Shown here: positions 2,987 through 63,430 of the stretch, one piece after another
Numbering within the stretch: position 1 is the stretch's first letter
Layout: every line of letters begins with the position of its first letter
Assembly: GCF_030013205.1 (NCBI RefSeq)
Contig: NZ_CP122648.1
Reading direction: 5' to 3' (one strand)
Length of the DNA: 64,000 nt
From: Escherichia coli
Lineage (GTDB): Bacteria; Pseudomonadota; Gammaproteobacteria; Enterobacterales; Enterobacteriaceae
Translations under genes and position numbers: made by a program
Notes under the pieces: model-generated
The model's input: the letters and a program-made list of their open reading frames with translations, nothing else
The model's database searches: none
Told to the model about the DNA's origin: nothing

Positions 2987-5782
<2,796 letters not shown>

Positions 5783-55438: not shown

Positions 55439-55623
55439 TGTGCACATCCTTTTGGCATCAGACGTAAACGAGCCAGCATTGAAACAATGCATATTTTATT
55501 TAATAGCTCCCGTTCTTGTTTTCTCTTGTTAATGGCATCTTCAGTAAATACTGGGTTACTGATAGTGACACCAATTTCAAAACAACCTTCAGACGTATTA
55601 ACGTTTGGTAATAACGTTTTCAT
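55435..55623 (-). CDS. dicB: cell division inhibitor DicB
   Basis: ORF trimmed to 62 aa MKTLLPNVNTSEGCFEIGVTISNPVF...; recognised as DicB. Confidence 0.9.
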   Translation of the reverse strand: MKTLLPNVNTSEGCFEIGVTISNPVFTEDAINKRKQERELLNKICIVSMLARLRLMPKGCAQ

Positions 55624-55797
55624 TATCGCGTCCTCAACAATGAATTTTGTGATGCAGTGCCTGGTGCCTCCAGGTGACGTTAACCAGTTAACAATTAACG
55701 CCGGATACAGAGAATCCACCCATAACACTGTTTTTGGTTTTAACTGTTCCGCGTGCGCTCAGCCGCATTCACCACATCACAAAATTCACTTTAAAAA

Positions 55798-55850
55798 GGG
55801 CAGCAGAGCAGTCACGGAGTAAAACTGATACCGCCAAACGTCACCAGAAA
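55798..55850 (-). ncRNA. dicF: DicF small regulatory RNA
   Basis: Minus strand reads UUUCUGGUGACGUUUGGCGGUAUCAGUUUUACUCCGUGACUGCUCUGCUGCCC followed by UUUUU; matches remembered DicF; sits between ydfC and dicB. Confidence 0.85.
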
Positions 55851-57612: not shown

Positions 57613-57919
57613 ACAGGCTCGTGAGGCTCTGGATGCCTGGATATGTCGACCAGGAATGACACAGGAGCAGGCGACGATATTAATCACTGAAGCATTCTGG
57701 GCTTTGAAAGAGCGCCCGAACATCGATGTTCAGCGTGTCACATATGAAGGTGGCGCGATTGATCAGCGAGCGCTTGGCGTTATCTGGTCATCACCTGACG
57801 GAGAAATACGTCGCTACGACAGTCGCCTAAACATAATCTGTCGCGAGTGCCGGAAGAGCGAAGTTATGCAGCGCATACTGGCTTTCTATCAGGGTAATTT
57901 TCAGGACGTGGCGCAGTGA
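57596..57919 (+). CDS. hypothetical prophage protein (YdfX-like position), Cys-containing
   Basis: 107-aa ORF overlapping the dicC 3' end by 17 nt; CxxC at CRECRK; family not assigned. Confidence 0.5.
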   Translation: MKITPEQAREALDAWICRPGMTQEQATILITEAFWALKERPNIDVQRVTYEGGAIDQRALGVIWSSPDGEIRRYDSRLNIICRECRKSEVMQRILAFYQGNFQDVAQ

Positions 57920-58272
57920 GTGCACCGGCAACCATTCTTGATATGTGCTGTGGCAGCCGCATGTTCTGGTTCGATAAGTCTGACGAACGGGCGATATTCA
58001 GCGATATCAGAAAAGAAGGATACACATTACGCAATGGGAGACGCTTGATTATCAGCCCTGACATTATCGCAGATTTTCGTGCATTATCATTTGCAGACGC
58101 ATCTTTTTCGATGGTTGTATTAGACCCTCCGCATCTTGAGAGTGTTGGTGATAACGCCTGGATGGGAAAGAAATATGGACGGCTGAATAAAGATGCCTGG
58201 CGTGATGATTCGCGACAGAGATTTAAAGAAGCCTTTCGGGGGTTGAGGCCGCACGGCGTTCTGATTTTTTAA
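57916..58272 (+). pseudogene. short SAM-methyltransferase-like ORF, probably truncated
   Basis: 118-codon ORF starting at GTG overlapping the upstream stop; motif-I-like ILDMCCGS and DPPH (DPPY-like); ends at a T6 run. Confidence 0.4.
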
Positions 58273-58631
58273 TGGAATGAAACGCAAATACCGGTAAGCC
58301 AGATTCTGGCACTGACAGACAGAAAACCTGTTATCTGTCAACGAACAGGGAAAAAACGATAAAACCCACTGGATTATTTTTATGAAAGAGGCATCCAGTG
58401 AGTAGATTCGTAAGGCTACAGATACGTATATCTGAATAATTAAATTCAGTTCTGTAAATAAAATTTAATCCTTAACCGGATGGATTTCTGCACCCTCAGA
58501 ACATCAGGAGGCCGCCCGAAAGGGCGGTAGTGAAATGCGAATGTTCAAAATTATTATTGAAACGGGAATAGCTGGTGGAGATTTTGAGGATGTATTCGAA
58601 GTGGACGATGACGCAACACCTGAGGAAATTC

Positions 58632-58886
58632 ATGACGGAGCATAAGAAATTTTCTTTAACTACTGCAATTACTCATACCACGAAATAAAAGACGATGAGG
58701 AAGAACAAAGTGGCTGATTTTTGTTCAGCTAAATATAACATCAGTTTTGAAGAGCGGGATGAACTATTAATGGACTATGGTGAGTTACGCGGTGGAAGTG
58801 CTGCTGATGTCGAATCCTAGCGTGATGACTATGAAGCGGGAAAAACTCCGGTCGAAGCATATTGTGATGAGTGGGGCGATGAATGA
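58632..58886 (+). pseudogene. reading frame interrupted by in-frame TAA and TAG, otherwise open
   Basis: Hand translation MTEHKKFSLTTAITHTTK*KTMRKNKVADFCSAKYNISFEERDELLMDYGELRGGSAADVES*RDDYEAGKTPVEAYCDEWGDE*. Confidence 0.3.
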
Positions 58887-59170
58887 GCGAGATTAATTAT
58901 CAGGAAGGGCATGAAACGGCGGGGCAAGCAAAACCAGTGGCATGGCGATATCGCTACGTGAAAAAAGGCGTTACGGACTTTCAGGGGAAGTAGTGGTCTG
59001 GTGACTGGAAATATGTACCGAAAAAAGAGGATTGTAACGACAGGCCGAACTATCAAATTCAGGCCTTATTCACTGCCTCACCAGTCCCAGTTACATCAGA
59101 AGAACTGGTTAAAGCTGTGCACTTTTATGAACAACTAAAACGCGAAAATCCACCAACATCCGGCAACTAG
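58883..59170 (+). pseudogene. reading frame interrupted by one in-frame TAG, start overlaps previous stop (ATGA)
   Basis: Hand translation MSEINYQEGHETAGQAKPVAWRYRYVKKGVTDFQGK*WSGDWKYVPKKEDCNDRPNYQIQALFTASPVPVTSEELVKAVHFYEQLKRENPPTSGN*. Confidence 0.3.
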
Positions 59171-59424
59171 ATTAATGGATTAACTATGTCGGTTAAACGA
59201 CCAGCCAACTGAAAAAGCGGAAACCTGATTACAGGTTGCCAGATAAGGCAATGAGCTACCTGGCGCGGAACGGACTGATAAGTATGGGGAATGTTTTACG
59301 ATGAACCTTTAGACTAAAGAGTTTGTAACGCTATGTAAGTGATTTTTTCTGGTTTAGATATTTATATGTCCGGCCAAATTGAGGTGTGTTTAAATGTAAT
59401 TGCACATTGATTGTAGGAGGAATA

Positions 59425-59604
59425 ATGAAAAACGCATTGCAGTTTTTGTTTGTTGCGTTCTGGTTGTTCGCATCATGTATGCCCATCATCTTCACAGCAA
59501 GGTATATGGAAAAAGTTGATGTTTTGATATTAATATTTGGATATATAAATGCCCTTTTTTTAGGGGTGTTCATGGCGGTCATGTGCATTGAATACTGGCG
59601 GTAA
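59425..59604 (+). CDS. 59-aa hydrophobic (two predicted TM) small protein
   Basis: MKNALQFLFVAFWLFASCMPIIFTARYMEKVDVLILIFGYINALFLGVFMAVMCIEYWR; GGAGG about 6 nt upstream of the ATG. Confidence 0.45.
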   Translation: MKNALQFLFVAFWLFASCMPIIFTARYMEKVDVLILIFGYINALFLGVFMAVMCIEYWR

Positions 59605-59938
59605 ATACAGCGAACTCCATTGGTTTAGTTGGATATTTACTGTGCTGGACAAAAACGGTTTGCGGGGAAATCTTAGTTAAGTAGAATGACTGCGGGTGCT
59701 TGAGGCTATCTGCCTCGGGCATGGACACCAACGGCAGATAGAGAAAAGCCCCAGTTAACATTACGCGTCCTGCAAGACGCTTAACATTAATCTGAGGCCA
59801 ATTTCATGCTAGACACATGTAGGTTAGCCTCTTACGTGCCGAAAGGCACGGAGAAGCAGGCTATTGTTAACACCAAGTTGTAATGTCCCCTTTGAACCAT
59901 TCTAAAATGTCCCCAGACAATTCTCTGGGGGATTTTTC

Positions 59939-61252
59939 ATGATCAAAGAGACTGTTACGATGAGTCATAAGGAACTCCACCGACTTCAGATTATTCAGGA
60001 ACAAGCTGCGGCACGCATTGGCATTTCTATTCGGCAGGTTAAACGTCTGGTGCAACGGTATAGAAATGAAGGGCCTTCTGGTCTGGTTTCCCACCGACGT
60101 GGAAAGCGTCCTAATAATTCCTTTTCTACTGAATTCAGAGCAACAGTAATTTCACTCCTCAAAGGCCGTTACGCTGATTTTGGACCTACGTTTGCGTGCG
60201 AAAAATTGCGCGAGATACACGGTTTATCTTTATCCGTTGAAACTCTCAGAAAGTGGATGATAGAAGAGGGGTTATGGCGTGAACGCCGTCGTAAAATTGC
60301 CCGTATATATCAACGCCGCATGCGACGACCATCTTACGGTGAACTGATCCAGATTGATGGCTCACCTCATGACTGGTTTGAAAATCGAGGCCCCAGATGT
60401 ACACTGATCGTTTTCATTGATGATGCCACCAGTGCGTTGATGGCGTTGCGTTTTGTGCCTGCTGAAACAACCCGGGCTTACATGGAAACCCTCCGGGGTT
60501 ACCTTAATGATCATGGCGTACCGCTCGCTCTCTACTCTGATAGACACAGTATATTCAGGGTAAATAACCCAGAGCGGGAAGGTGAGCTGACCCAGTTCAC
60601 TCGTGCGATAAAGACACTGGGCATCGAGCCAATCCATGCCAACAGCCCGCAGGCAAAAGGGCGGGTAGAGCGCGCCAATCAGACACTACAGGACAGGCTG
60701 GTCAAAGAAATGCGGCTTCAGAATATCAGTGATATTGAAACAGCAAATGCATGGTTGCCGACCTTTATTGAAGCCTATAACAACCGGTTCGCTACGTCGC
60801 CTCGTACTACTGATAATGCTCATCTTGATGTGCACCATTCTGAAGAGGAACTGGGTTATATCTTCAGCCTACAGGCGAAGCGCGTTCTGTCTAAAAATCT
60901 CACTTTCCAGTACAAAAGCAGTGCGTTTCAGGTACGCAGTGAGGGCCGGGGATATCGACTTAGGCATTCGGTTGTTACTGTATGCGAGAACTTTGACGGT
61001 GAAATTAACGTTCTGTATGACGGGAAAGCGCTGGGCTGGGAAAAGTATGTTGATGGCCCGGAGCCTATACCACTGGATGATGAAAAGAGTGTCCATGAAC
61101 GAGTGGATAATGCCCGTATTGATTTACGCTCAAAATACTATGTTAAACCTAAAGCTGACCATCCCTGGCTTACGCGCCGAACGCAAAGTCATCAGCAAGT
61201 TAAGCCCCCGAAGTTACCTAAAAAGAAGCCTGATCCCGATAAAAAAGATTGA
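59939..61252 (+). CDS. DDE transposase with N-terminal HTH and rve-type integrase core (IS481/ISNCY-like), Lys-rich tail
   Basis: 437-aa ORF; HTH at IGISIRQVKRLVQRY; acidic residues in DGSPHDW / FIDDATS / RVERANQ context; family assigned from memory only. Confidence 0.65.
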   Translation: MIKETVTMSHKELHRLQIIQEQAAARIGISIRQVKRLVQRYRNEGPSGLVSHRRGKRPNNSFSTEFRATVISLLKGRYADFGPTFACEKLREIHGLSLSVETLRKWMIEEGLWRERRRKIARIYQRRMRRPSYGELIQIDGSPHDWFENRGPRCTLIVFIDDATSALMALRFVPAETTRAYMETLRGYLNDHGVPLALYSDRHSIFRVNNPEREGELTQFTRAIKTLGIEPIHANSPQAKGRVERANQTLQDRLVKEMRLQNISDIETANAWLPTFIEAYNNRFATSPRTTDNAHLDVHHSEEELGYIFSLQAKRVLSKNLTFQYKSSAFQVRSEGRGYRLRHSVVTVCENFDGEINVLYDGKALGWEKYVDGPEPIPLDDEKSVHERVDNARIDLRSKYYVKPKADHPWLTRRTQSHQQVKPPKLPKKKPDPDKKD

Positions 61253-61586
61253 AACCAAGATCGATTCGGTTGAGTGCATATCCATTCATAGGGTAGATTC
61301 TTAAGTCGCGTTTCTGGTGTTCATTTTCGGGTGGTTTGTTACTTGTTTTACCGGGGATATGCCAGAAACGCGCTGAGTCAGTCTGGGCGGTGCGCGTAAT
61401 GAGGCGTTATGGTAAATAGCCTATGCTAATGTCCGCTAAGAGCAAGAAGCGGAAGTTGGCAGTTTTGTGGACTGTCCCCACAAAAGTGACTACAGAAATA
61501 GTTGCAATTCATAATTGATCATGGGTTGTCAGTTAAACTCGTGGCGATTTAAATAGACTAATTGGGAGTGCGTCCATTACTTATAT

Positions 61587-61635
61587 CTTGTAATGTTAAC
61601 TATCAGAAATTCTTGTAATGTTAACTATCAGAAAT
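61587..61635. repeat. Two tandem copies of a 24-bp unit CTTGTAATGTTAACTATCAGAAAT separated by 1 nt
   Basis: Read directly: 61587-61610 and 61612-61635 are identical; located 3' of flxA. Confidence 0.9.
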
Positions 61636-61713
61636 GATACAAAGATAATATGTCTTTAAAGAAAAGGCTGATGGCGAAAAGTGGCCCGATGAGGGCCACA
61701 ATACGGCTGTCAC

Positions 61714-62046
61714 TTAGACGTAAATATCAATGGTGCCAGCGGTATTTGTATCGTCTTTTTTCTCTTCTTTTTTATCAGGCTGAACTGTCGCGTCTTCATT
61801 CTTTTTCTCTGCCTGCTGCCTTAACAACTGCTCCAGTTGAGCCCAGAGGCTTTCAATTTGCTTCTGTACCAATGCAGCCATTTCTTTTTTCTGCTGTGTC
61901 GTCATCCCCTCTTCCGATGAGATTTTCCCAAGCTTTTCAGTCAGCACCTGAATTTGTCTTGTGATTTTGGCTATTTCTGATGTTCCTTCCGGGGCGGAGT
62001 TGTTTGAAATAACGGTTGAGGTATTTCCCTGAATTGTGACAGACAT
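61714..62046 (-). CDS. flxA: FlxA (FliA-regulated Qin prophage protein)
   Basis: 110-aa ORF MSVTIQGNTSTVISNN... recognised as FlxA; AGGAG upstream. Confidence 0.88.
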   Translation of the reverse strand: MSVTIQGNTSTVISNNSAPEGTSEIAKITRQIQVLTEKLGKISSEEGMTTQQKKEMAALVQKQIESLWAQLEQLLRQQAEKKNEDATVQPDKKEEKKDDTNTAGTIDIYV

Positions 62047-62069
62047 AGATTTCTCCTTTTAAAAAAGCA

Positions 62070-62096
62070 CTATCGGCATGCACAAAAAAATCTTTA
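62070..62096 (-). promoter_or_regulatory. sigma-28 (FliA) type promoter for flxA
   Basis: Minus strand TAAAGATT-N11-GCCGATAG versus consensus TAAAGTTT-N11-GCCGATAA, about 25-50 nt upstream of the flxA ATG. Confidence 0.75.
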
Positions 62097-62248
62097 ATCG
62101 TATTTCTTGTGTCATTAATTGTTTGATGTTCAGATTGTTTTCCTCGCGGGCTGGCGCGCCTCAGAAAGTAAAGCTTGTTGACAGGGGTAAACGTTCGGCA
62201 ATAATTTTCTGCCGCATGCGGGTGTTGCATAAAACGTGTTACGTTCCT

Positions 62249-62554
62249 TTATCGACAGGTCAGGTCACCGCTCACCCGCCGACGAGAAAGCAACACTGAC
62301 ATGCTAAAGCAAAAAATAGATGAATAAGTTGAGTTGTGCATATGTAGCCTGACCGTCACAAAGTATATGGTGTCTGTACCAGTAAGATGATGGCCGGACT
62401 CTTTAAAAACGAGCTGACCTGCACAATACAGGATGGACTTAGCAATGGCTGCTCCTGGCACAAAGCGGACAGTGATCACCGTTCTTACGACTACTTTCTG
62501 ACTTCCTTCGTGACTTGCCCTAAGCATGTTGTAGTGCGATACTTGTAATGACAT
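62249..62554 (-). CDS. ydfV: Qin prophage protein YdfV
   Basis: 101-aa ORF between flxA and relB; identity by position and length, low compositional confidence. Confidence 0.5.
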   Translation of the reverse strand: MSLQVSHYNMLRASHEGSQKVVVRTVITVRFVPGAAIAKSILYCAGQLVFKESGHHLTGTDTIYFVTVRLHMHNSTYSSIFCFSMSVLLSRRRVSGDLTCR

Positions 62555-62566
62555 TTGTAATTACAA
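62543..62566. promoter_or_regulatory. relBE operator (relO) dyad
   Basis: TTGTAATGACATTTGTAATTACAA, containing the 12-bp palindrome TTGTAATTACAA, 13 nt upstream of the relB ATG. Confidence 0.7.
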
Positions 62567-62578
62567 GAGGTGTAAGAC

Positions 62579-62818
62579 ATGGGTAGCATTAACCTGCGTA
62601 TTGACGATGAACTTAAAGCGCGTTCTTACGCCGCGCTTGAAAAAATGGGTGTAACTCCTTCTGAAGCGCTTCGTCTCATGCTCGAGTATATCGCTGACAA
62701 TGAACGCTTGCCGTTCAAACAGACACTCCTGAGTGATGAAGATGCTGAACTTGTGGAGATAGTGAAAGAACGGCTTCGTAATCCTAAGCCAGTACGTGTG
62801 ACGCTGGATGAACTCTGA
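62579..62818 (+). CDS. relB: antitoxin RelB
   Basis: 79-aa ORF recognised as RelB. Confidence 0.95.
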   Translation: MGSINLRIDDELKARSYAALEKMGVTPSEALRLMLEYIADNERLPFKQTLLSDEDAELVEIVKERLRNPKPVRVTLDEL

Positions 62819-63105
62819 TGGCGTATTTTCTGGATTTTGACGAGCGGGCACTAAAGGAATGGCGAAAGCTGGGCTCGACGGTACGTGAACAGTTGAAAAA
62901 GAAGCTGGTTGAAGTACTTGAGTCACCCCGGATTGAAGCAAACAAGCTCCGTGGTATGCCTGATTGTTACAAGATTAAGCTCCGGTCTTCAGGCTATCGC
63001 CTTGTATACCAGGTTATAGACGAGAAAGTTGTCGTTTTCGTGATTTCTGTTGGGAAAAGAGAACGCTCGGAAGTATATAGCGAGGCGGTCAAACGCATTC
63101 TCTGA
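62818..63105 (+). CDS. relE: mRNA interferase toxin RelE
   Basis: 95-aa ORF overlapping the relB stop by 1 nt (TGATG); recognised as RelE. Confidence 0.95.
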   Translation: MAYFLDFDERALKEWRKLGSTVREQLKKKLVEVLESPRIEANKLRGMPDCYKIKLRSSGYRLVYQVIDEKVVVFVISVGKRERSEVYSEAVKRIL

Positions 63106-63176
63106 ACCAAAGCATGACATCTCTGTTTCGCACCGAAGGTGACACTTCTGCTTTGCGTTGACAGGAGAAGCAGGCT

Positions 63177-63332
63177 ATGAAGCAGCAAAAGGCGATGTTA
63201 ATCGCCCTGATCGTCATCTGTTTAACCGTCATAGTGACGGCACTGGTAACGAGGAAAGACCTCTGCGAGGTACGAATCCGAACCGGCCAGACGGAGGTCG
63301 CTGTCTTCACAGCTTACGAACCTGAGGAGTAA
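63177..63332 (+). CDS. hokD: Hok-family membrane toxin HokD (RelF)
   Basis: Hand-translated 51-aa ORF MKQQKAMLIALIVICLTVIVTALVTRKDLCEVRIRTGQTEVAVFTAYEPEE with AGGAG upstream; below ORF-track cutoff. Confidence 0.85.
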   Translation: MKQQKAMLIALIVICLTVIVTALVTRKDLCEVRIRTGQTEVAVFTAYEPEE

Positions 63333-63401
63333 GAGACCCGGCGGGGGAGAAATCCCTCGCCACCTCTGATGTGGCAGGCATCCTCAACGCACCCGCACTT
63401 A

Positions 63402-63430
63402 ACCCGCTTCGGCGGGTTTTTGTTTTTATT
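63402..63430 (+). terminator. Rho-independent terminator after hokD
   Basis: ACCCGC-TTCG-GCGGGT followed by TTTTTGTTTTTATTTT. Confidence 0.7.

Follow-up and report, generated by a model that had tools for sequence, protein, structure and literature searches.

A 59-codon open reading frame upstream of hok in an Escherichia coli prophage is very probably a gene of a new small membrane protein family

Results

A small gene in a Qin-type prophage

The DNA analysed here (the window) is a 64,000-nt stretch of Escherichia coli contig NZ_CP122648.1 (assembly GCF_030013205.1), which holds a Qin-type lambdoid prophage. Within it, an open reading frame (ORF) of 59 codons runs on the + strand from an ATG at 59425 to a TAA at 59602-59604, and it is very probably a true gene, belonging to a family that is new and small. 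We put at about 0.72 the probability that it is a genuine protein-coding gene, belonging to a family of two branches (branch A, that of the window, and a diverged branch B) and forming optional prophage cargo that travels with the toxin gene hok. The family was previously undescribed and is confined almost entirely to records of E. coli and Shigella. The product is probably a 59-residue inner-membrane protein with two hydrophobic helices and a short polar loop. Comparison of the branches indicates that the protein is under purifying selection across their divergence, and the constraint looks recently relaxed or weak in these largely cryptic prophages. An earlier note on this DNA had read the ORF, which lies in a nin-type region, as encoding a small prophage membrane protein with two likely transmembrane helices. 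That reading of it as coding is upheld; of the functional classes that the note offered, toxins and holin-like peptides are not supported, and superinfection exclusion is a candidate role. The note had overlooked the hok leader downstream, the insertion that truncates hok and the diverged paralogue. The features of the ORF are as follows.

59415-59420, + strand: Shine-Dalgarno (SD) sequence AGGAGG, 4 nt before the ATG, duplex -10.2 kcal/mol
59425-59604, + strand: coding sequence of the 59-residue membrane protein (branch A), frame open in both branches, ratio of non-synonymous to synonymous substitution rates (dN/dS) ~0.19
59434-59499, + strand: hydrophobic helix 1, residues 4-25, with invariant L5, L8, W13, S17, C18, P20, I22 and T24
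59464-59478, + strand: lipobox-like L-F-A-S-C, residues 14-18, reading I-V-I-S-C in branch B
59515-59589, + strand: hydrophobic helix 2, residues 31-55, with the small-residue face G39-A43-G47-(A/S)51 and invariant N42
59555-59561, + strand: run of seven T preceded by CCC, site of frameshift alleles; protein variants P0021-P0025 change frame here
59331-59588, - strand: antisense ORF of 85 codons, rejected as a gene; the same frame has 2 stops in branch B
L099 (a branch B locus), 5050-5229: branch B ORF, 59 residues, with a hok remnant (3' half of the coding sequence) downstream at ~5233-5367

Start signals and chance expectation

Re-translation matched the coordinates and the 59-residue translation of the earlier note exactly. 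The note had also claimed a strong ribosome-binding site, GGAGG about 6 nt upstream. The strength is borne out, the duplex with the anti-SD (-10.2 kcal/mol) lying beyond the 1st percentile of random 20-mers of the window (-8.7 kcal/mol), while the spacing is 4 nt (AATA), so that 6 was slightly generous. Position 59418 within the SD is polymorphic (A in 12 haplotypes, G in 9), and the G allele still gives -9.3 kcal/mol. Translation would thus start at the ATG at 59425 from a strong SD. A longer form of 72 codons starting at GTG was rejected, as its upstream extension lacks conservation: in branch B an in-frame TAA lies six codons before the ATG.

Chance expectation was modelled with 5000 dinucleotide shuffles of 59305-59693. 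An ATG-initiated ORF of at least 59 codons arose in 16% of them, and length alone is therefore unremarkable. Such an ORF with GGAGG upstream was found in 0.06% of shuffles and one equally hydrophobic in 0.04%; length, GGAGG and hydrophobicity came together in none of the 5000. Base composition differs between codon positions within the ORF (chi-square P = 0.015), T making up 53% of second positions against 36% overall. The G+C fraction is 0.36-0.385 across 59300-59700 and 0.43-0.50 on either side.

A diverged paralogue conserves the protein

The homology search that the earlier note had proposed as a check was run as phmmer and a profile search, and it uncovered a diverged homologue of the same length. 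The exhaustive phmmer search, against 1.84 billion representative proteins, returned P0037 (59 residues, 41% identical over its full length, E = 1e-8), and the profile search found the common form of this branch B (P0042) on at least 1000 contigs. Branch B DNA is present, almost monomorphic and unannotated, in 1045 of 5426 complete E. coli genomes, carriers recognised being SE15, ST131 and ABU 83972. It lies at ttcA, which we take to be the Rac attachment site, in a nearly erased prophage remnant with the order ttcA, integrase fragment, DUF1627 fragment, ORF, metal-permease pseudogene, uspF, ompN.

The proteins of the two branches are 41-44% identical and align without a gap over all 59 residues, while the DNA is 59% identical, with 25, 17 and 31 differences at the first, second and third codon positions. 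The proportions of synonymous and non-synonymous differences (pS and pN) are 0.72 and 0.34, giving a dN/dS of ~0.19 with synonymous divergence saturated. As a neutral reference, branch A was evolved in silico with the observed substitution spectrum. The frame was still open in 2.2% of simulations; the BLOSUM62 sum between the branches is 153 against 62.5 +/- 24 under neutrality (P = 1e-4), and their hydropathy profiles correlate with r = 0.85 against 0.53 +/- 0.18 (P = 0.005), for a joint neutral probability of 5e-5. None of the other five frames scores above 62, and each is interrupted by stops in at least one branch. Since the similarity is far above what neutral drift would leave, it is the protein sequence, and not just the DNA, that is conserved between the branches.

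The flanks differ in net length between the branches, and an argument from many indels there and none in the ORF was considered. It is weakened by the free DNA alignment, which places 8 compensating 1-nt gaps inside the ORF, and we therefore rely instead on the exact length and the gapless protein alignment. No third branch was found by pattern scans of viral contigs with the protein and with the alignment, tblastn against phages and plasmids, blastn for distant matches in E. coli genomes, or phmmer, although peptide patterns this degenerate would seldom pick up a further branch of 40% identity.

By eye, an extended -10-like sequence, TGATATAAT, is seen ~84 nt upstream of the branch B ATG (L099, ~4966-4974). 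The same site reads TGACATAAT in a second branch B locus (L096, 745-753), and the consensus scan did not call it. Such a site could give the remnant copy a promoter of its own.

Distribution and variation of branch A

Branch A DNA is found in 1568 of the 5426 complete genomes and in three sequenced temperate phages, and the region around the ORF is 100% identical to many E. coli chromosomes, for example that of ATCC 8739. All word-indexed protein matches came from E. coli or Shigella, with identities of 74% or more, many of them frameshifted at the CCC-T7 run or carrying foreign C-termini. Polymorphism was assessed in 95 loci (21 haplotypes, at most ~3% divergent). The ORF is intact in 94; the exception (L011) has a 1-nt deletion at 59552. 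The substitutions within the branch are A16V, V31I, I37M, Y40H, L44I and M53T, and with branch B as outgroup the window allele is derived at I37 and Y40. These replacements are conservative, with a mean BLOSUM score of +1.17 against -0.24 expected (P = 0.024).

One match (H209, NZ_CP069920.1 8758-8934, branch A, 98% identity) lies on a 9.5-kb record labelled as a Klebsiella oxytoca plasmid. It is the sole match labelled neither Escherichia nor Shigella and could be a phage fragment, a transfer or a contamination.

Annotation and library searches

The earlier note had called the ORF unannotated, which holds for RefSeq and fails for GenBank and UniProt, where there are entries for the 59- and 72-residue forms. 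These are named 'hypothetical protein', one of them 'membrane protein', and two are UniProt entries. On the opposite strand, the antisense ORF is annotated in the phage records PV340562.1 and ON470619.1 as 'hornerin' or 'hypothetical protein'.

Branch A had no match at E <= 10 in Pfam, NCBIfam or PHROG; a PADLOC search returned 0 families and a PDB profile search 0 matches. Foldseek against BFVD and PDB gave nothing below E = 2.5, the value of the top BFVD fold match, a holin, which is not significant. Branch B scored 13.9 bits against TIGR03647 and 14.5 against DUF4212, below the respective cutoffs of 30 and 26.05. The same branch alone also gave the sole PHROG match, phrog_6298, of unknown function, with 13-14 bits and an E of ~0.1 for individual proteins (best value across members 0.014). 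All of these scores are sub-threshold and were treated as compositional resemblance rather than kinship. A literature search on 'CssrC' returned unrelated papers only.

Is the ORF coding?

The principal alternative is that the ORF arose by chance in an AT- and T-rich spacer upstream of the hok promoter, its SD and its hydrophobicity being by-products of composition. Several observations weigh against coding and fit this account. All six substitutions within branch A are non-synonymous and none is synonymous, at 143 non-synonymous and 34 synonymous sites, a pattern with P = 0.13 under neutrality and P <= 0.005 if omega (dN/dS) were 0.3 or less, so that recent constraint looks relaxed. Frameshift and chimeric alleles exist naturally, one frameshift being within the branch A loci. 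The SD of branch B is weak (-4.8 kcal/mol). The flanks are conserved between the branches as much as the ORF itself (~73% identity in a gapped alignment), and the coding case thus rests on the pattern of change and not on an island of conservation. With only two branches, moreover, the statistics hang on one deep comparison. No RefSeq feature, as called by the Prokaryotic Genome Annotation Pipeline (PGAP), overlaps the ORF among the 25 matches listed and in the 13 RefSeq loci that were inspected, and other annotators placed their gene on the opposite strand. Literature text searches with peptide strings and UniProt identifiers found no mention of either peptide, and no transcript, ribosome-profiling or proteomic evidence was found for the 59-codon gene, K-12, where expression data exist, being without it. 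Chance also supplies an ORF of this length readily, as the shuffles show, and branch A matches no family library. What a chance ORF does not explain is the combination of SD and hydrophobicity, absent from every shuffle, and above all a second branch that keeps the same frame, length, start and stop at 59% DNA identity, as no other frame does. The within-branch dN/dS, which pointed to no constraint, has low power and is outweighed by this deeper comparison. We therefore consider a chance origin improbable. That the real gene is instead the 85-codon antisense ORF is hardly credible. It is annotated in the two phage records and is open in branch A, but it has no SD, has a grand average of hydropathy (GRAVY) of -0.37 and in branch B is broken by its two stops, with similarity at the neutral level.

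The prophage setting and the hok cassette

The prophage has dicF, ydfABC, dicA and dicC, then replication and nin-type genes and, further along, flxA, ydfV, relBE, hokD and rem. The 59-codon ORF sits between the nin-region genes and hok, with rem, ydfU, rusA and Q further downstream. Three features describe its immediate setting.

59218-59864, + strand: mosaic cassette of the 3' end of the upstream nin gene, the 59-codon gene and the hok leader
59660-59687, + strand: putative hok promoter TTGCGG-16 nt-TAGAAT, read by eye, its -10 ending 6 nt before 59694
59694-59865, + strand: orphan 5' leader of the hok mRNA, matching Rfam RF01794 'sok' (104 bits, E = 2e-23 to 2e-24)

The RF01794 match is full-length; the model ends in SD and AUG, and the match is cut at the hok start codon. 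In genomes free of the insertion the hok coding sequence starts immediately after window position 59864, which identifies the match as the sense-strand hok leader. The stop codon of the ORF lies 90 nt before it. Among the 79 loci that are not truncated on the left by the end of the locus, 55 have homology to the window beginning at 59218; on the right, homology continues into the hok leader in all branch A loci examined. Since a hok remnant (nt 19-156 of the coding sequence, ~50 nt after the stop) also follows branch B, the adjacency of gene and hok predates the split of the branches. Hok genes were found to be enriched in prophages in a recent survey of Hok diversity, in the main text of which the string 'neighbo' does not occur.

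A crude consensus scan, which also failed to call the hok promoter at 59660-59687, found no promoter-like or + strand terminator-like site beside the ORF. With no such site between it and the upstream early-right genes, the ORF is probably co-expressed with them once the DicA-type repressor is lifted.

The earlier note had held that absence of the ORF from related prophages with otherwise identical flanks would refute its reading. This was looked into, and the absences found are of another kind and do not refute it. The Qin prophage of K-12 MG1655 (L110) lacks window positions 57783-61067, a 3.3-kb deletion from a ydaT-like gene (ydfX) into the transposase gene that takes out the 59-codon gene and the hok leader together with replication and nin genes. 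In O157 prophages without the ORF, hok directly follows a DUF551 gene and the flanks differ.

The nin-region gene just upstream (58883-59304, + strand) is frameshifted with an internal stop here and in many prophages, and intact in some genomes (104-204 residues, several alleles). Two further Rfam matches in the window are sub-threshold, isrK just after hokD (63341-63422, + strand, 25 bits) and STnc100 beside DicF (55591-55800, - strand, 34 bits).

The predicted protein

Kyte-Doolittle profiles with 19-residue windows give two hydrophobic segments, residues 4-25 and 31-55 (maxima 2.14 and 2.39), in a protein with a GRAVY of 1.27. AlphaFold2, with an alignment of 24 sequences, predicts a helical hairpin with helices at residues 2-26 and 31-58 and a mean predicted local distance difference test score (pLDDT) of 74. 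The topology check thus agrees by both methods with the two transmembrane helices that the earlier note had seen. Across 24 variants M1, L5, L8, W13, S17, C18, P20, I22, T24 and L36 are invariant, as are G39, N42, A43, L44, E56, W58 and R59 in the C-terminal half. The C-terminal tail, E-Y-W-R, has 4 residues and no net charge. The K or R residues at both termini, together with a loop that is acidic in branch B and neutral in branch A, suggest that both termini are cytoplasmic and the short loop (residues 26-32) periplasmic. The protein most likely acts within the membrane through helix-helix packing, the invariant N42 and the face G39-A43-G47-(A/S)51 suggesting self-association or docking on a host or phage membrane protein.

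Candidate functions

On these sequence features, a role as a modulator or as an exclusion-type accessory would rank above toxin or holin and lysis roles. The toxin and holin-like classes had been put forward in the earlier note, and we regard a membrane toxin or holin-like protein, whether a type I toxin paired with an antitoxin RNA or a class II holin/pinholin, as unlikely. The protein is small, very hydrophobic and prophage-encoded, and like Hok/Gef peptides it would be an inner-membrane peptide; its gene adjoins, and is co-inherited with, that of the membrane toxin Hok. Unlike Hok, it has two hydrophobic helices that fill the protein rather than a single N-terminal one, has no periplasmic domain with a Cys pair and shows no sequence similarity to Hok/Gef or match to any other toxin family. 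Nor does its gene have a mok/sok-type leader or antisense RNA: folding z-scores are -1.2 on the + strand, +0.6 on the - strand and -0.2 around the SD, by which a structured-RNA reading of the region was rejected, the one antisense Rfam match is sub-threshold at 18.9 bits, and the SD is accessible and not sequestered. Moreover, ~1000 genomes keep branch B intact and unregulated within a prophage remnant, a finding hard to square with a potent toxin. Class II holins and pinholins (e.g. S21 68 of phage 21) are phage-encoded proteins of about 60-70 residues with two transmembrane helices. The 59-residue protein resembles them in its two helices, in an N-in/C-in topology predicted from charge only, and in small-residue faces that, with the Asn in helix 2, could support pore-forming oligomers, and the top BFVD fold match was a holin, though not a significant one. 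It differs in having a short tail without net charge in place of a charged one, no dual-start motif, no endolysin or lysis cassette beside it and no PHROG holin match.

A processed lipoprotein is a somewhat better candidate, though still a doubtful one. Residues 1-17 would form a signal peptide cut by signal peptidase II at C18, leaving a lipidated peptide of 42 residues with helix 2 as an additional anchor. S17 and C18 are invariant, and both branches satisfy a PROSITE PS51257-style lipobox rule (K or R in the n-region, residues 4-17 uncharged, Cys within 15-35), which holds by chance in 0.8-1.8% of whole-protein shuffles and in ~9% of shuffles within helix 1. Small phage lipoproteins include Rz1, Cor and Llp, the last two of them exclusion factors, and like these the 59-residue protein has an N-terminal K or R and a hydrophobic stretch, with an invariant Cys set in what resembles a lipobox. 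Against this, the residue at -3 is F or V where L is usual, hydrophobic residues (M/V-P-I-I) follow the Cys, AlphaFold2 runs one continuous helix from residue 2 to 26, and the putative mature part is mostly transmembrane helix rather than a soluble periplasmic domain. The product may nonetheless be a lipoprotein. Among other small membrane proteins, moron and superinfection-exclusion proteins such as HK97 gp15 and T4 Imm are comparable in that the ORF is present in some related prophages and absent from others and has a G+C content below its surroundings; they differ in that it has no similarity to defence or phage families and no promoter or terminator of its own in the crude scan. The symporter small subunits (TIGR03647, DUF4212) are two-helix hairpins of similar size to which branch B aligns weakly over nearly its full length, but the scores are below the cutoffs, branch A has no match and there is no symporter gene nearby.

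The constant company of hok raises a further reading, in which the protein works with hok/sok, for example by modulating Hok insertion or conferring immunity to Hok, in a three-part unit. All branch A loci examined have the hok leader on their right, a hok remnant follows branch B too, and both proteins would be inner-membrane peptides. However, most hok loci are without the gene (hok-leader DNA occurs in 4331 genomes against 1568 for the ORF, and hok follows the DUF551 gene in O157), branch B survives where hok is destroyed, the hok that the gene adjoins in the window has already been split by the insertion, and the linkage may be mere synteny in a mosaic block. We consider such a partnership improbable, and slightly more so the specific form in which the protein is a dedicated membrane partner, possibly lipid-anchored, that tunes or neutralises Hok. 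The reading that we prefer is the broader one, of a genuine small membrane protein gene carried as optional cargo with hok.

An IS1202-family insertion at the hok start codon

In the window, the hok leader is parted from its coding sequence by an insertion sequence (IS) unit.

59850-59864: left copy of a direct repeat, GGAGAAGCAGGCTAT, 15 nt, an exact target-site duplication
59865-63163, + strand: IS1202-family (ISNCY) unit, 3299 bp, with the transposase gene (59939-61252), flxA, ydfV and relBE
63164-63178: right copy of the direct repeat, GGAGAAGCAGGCTAT, spanning the SD of hokD and the AT of its ATG start codon
63177-63332, + strand: hokD coding sequence, parted from its original leader by the insertion

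The insert is absent from the IS-free loci. Its ends form an imperfect inverted repeat (18 of 26 positions) beginning TGT, a degree of match reached by 2 of 127,948 26-mers of the window. The ISTde1 subgroup of the IS1202 family is described as having duplications of 15-17 bp, TGT termini and, in some members, passenger genes, and the insert appears to fit this subgroup as one transposition unit with passenger genes. A single insertion at the hok start codon would account for the position of hokD in K-12, after relBE and without a leader. The transposase ORF (59939-61252) is intact at 437 codons. Its last 49 codons are annotated, in frame, as 'protein YdfW' (49 residues, 61103-61252, + strand), and the part before them carries the PGAP label of an incomplete ISNCY transposase. 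At 61586-61635, past the end of the transposase gene, is an exact 25-nt tandem duplication of TCTTGTAATGTTAACTATCAGAAAT in two copies. The strings GTTAAC and TTGTAATG occur both in it and at the left end of the insert, and the duplication may once have been the right end.

Significance

A large share of complete E. coli genomes carries branch A or B (1568 and 1045 of 5426), with ST131, ATCC 8739, SE15 and ABU 83972 among the carriers, while RefSeq annotation omits the gene and K-12, where small-protein discovery has been concentrated, does not have it. Should the improbable pairing with Hok be true, it would make a subset of prophage hok loci three-component cassettes. As it stands, the ORF very probably adds a new family to the poorly charted small membrane proteins of prophages, one of an ordinary kind with a modest link to hok, and a concrete candidate for tests of toxicity, phage exclusion or interplay with Hok. 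It also shows that, where shallow polymorphism is misleading, one deep comparison of paralogues can be enough to decide whether a short ORF is coding.

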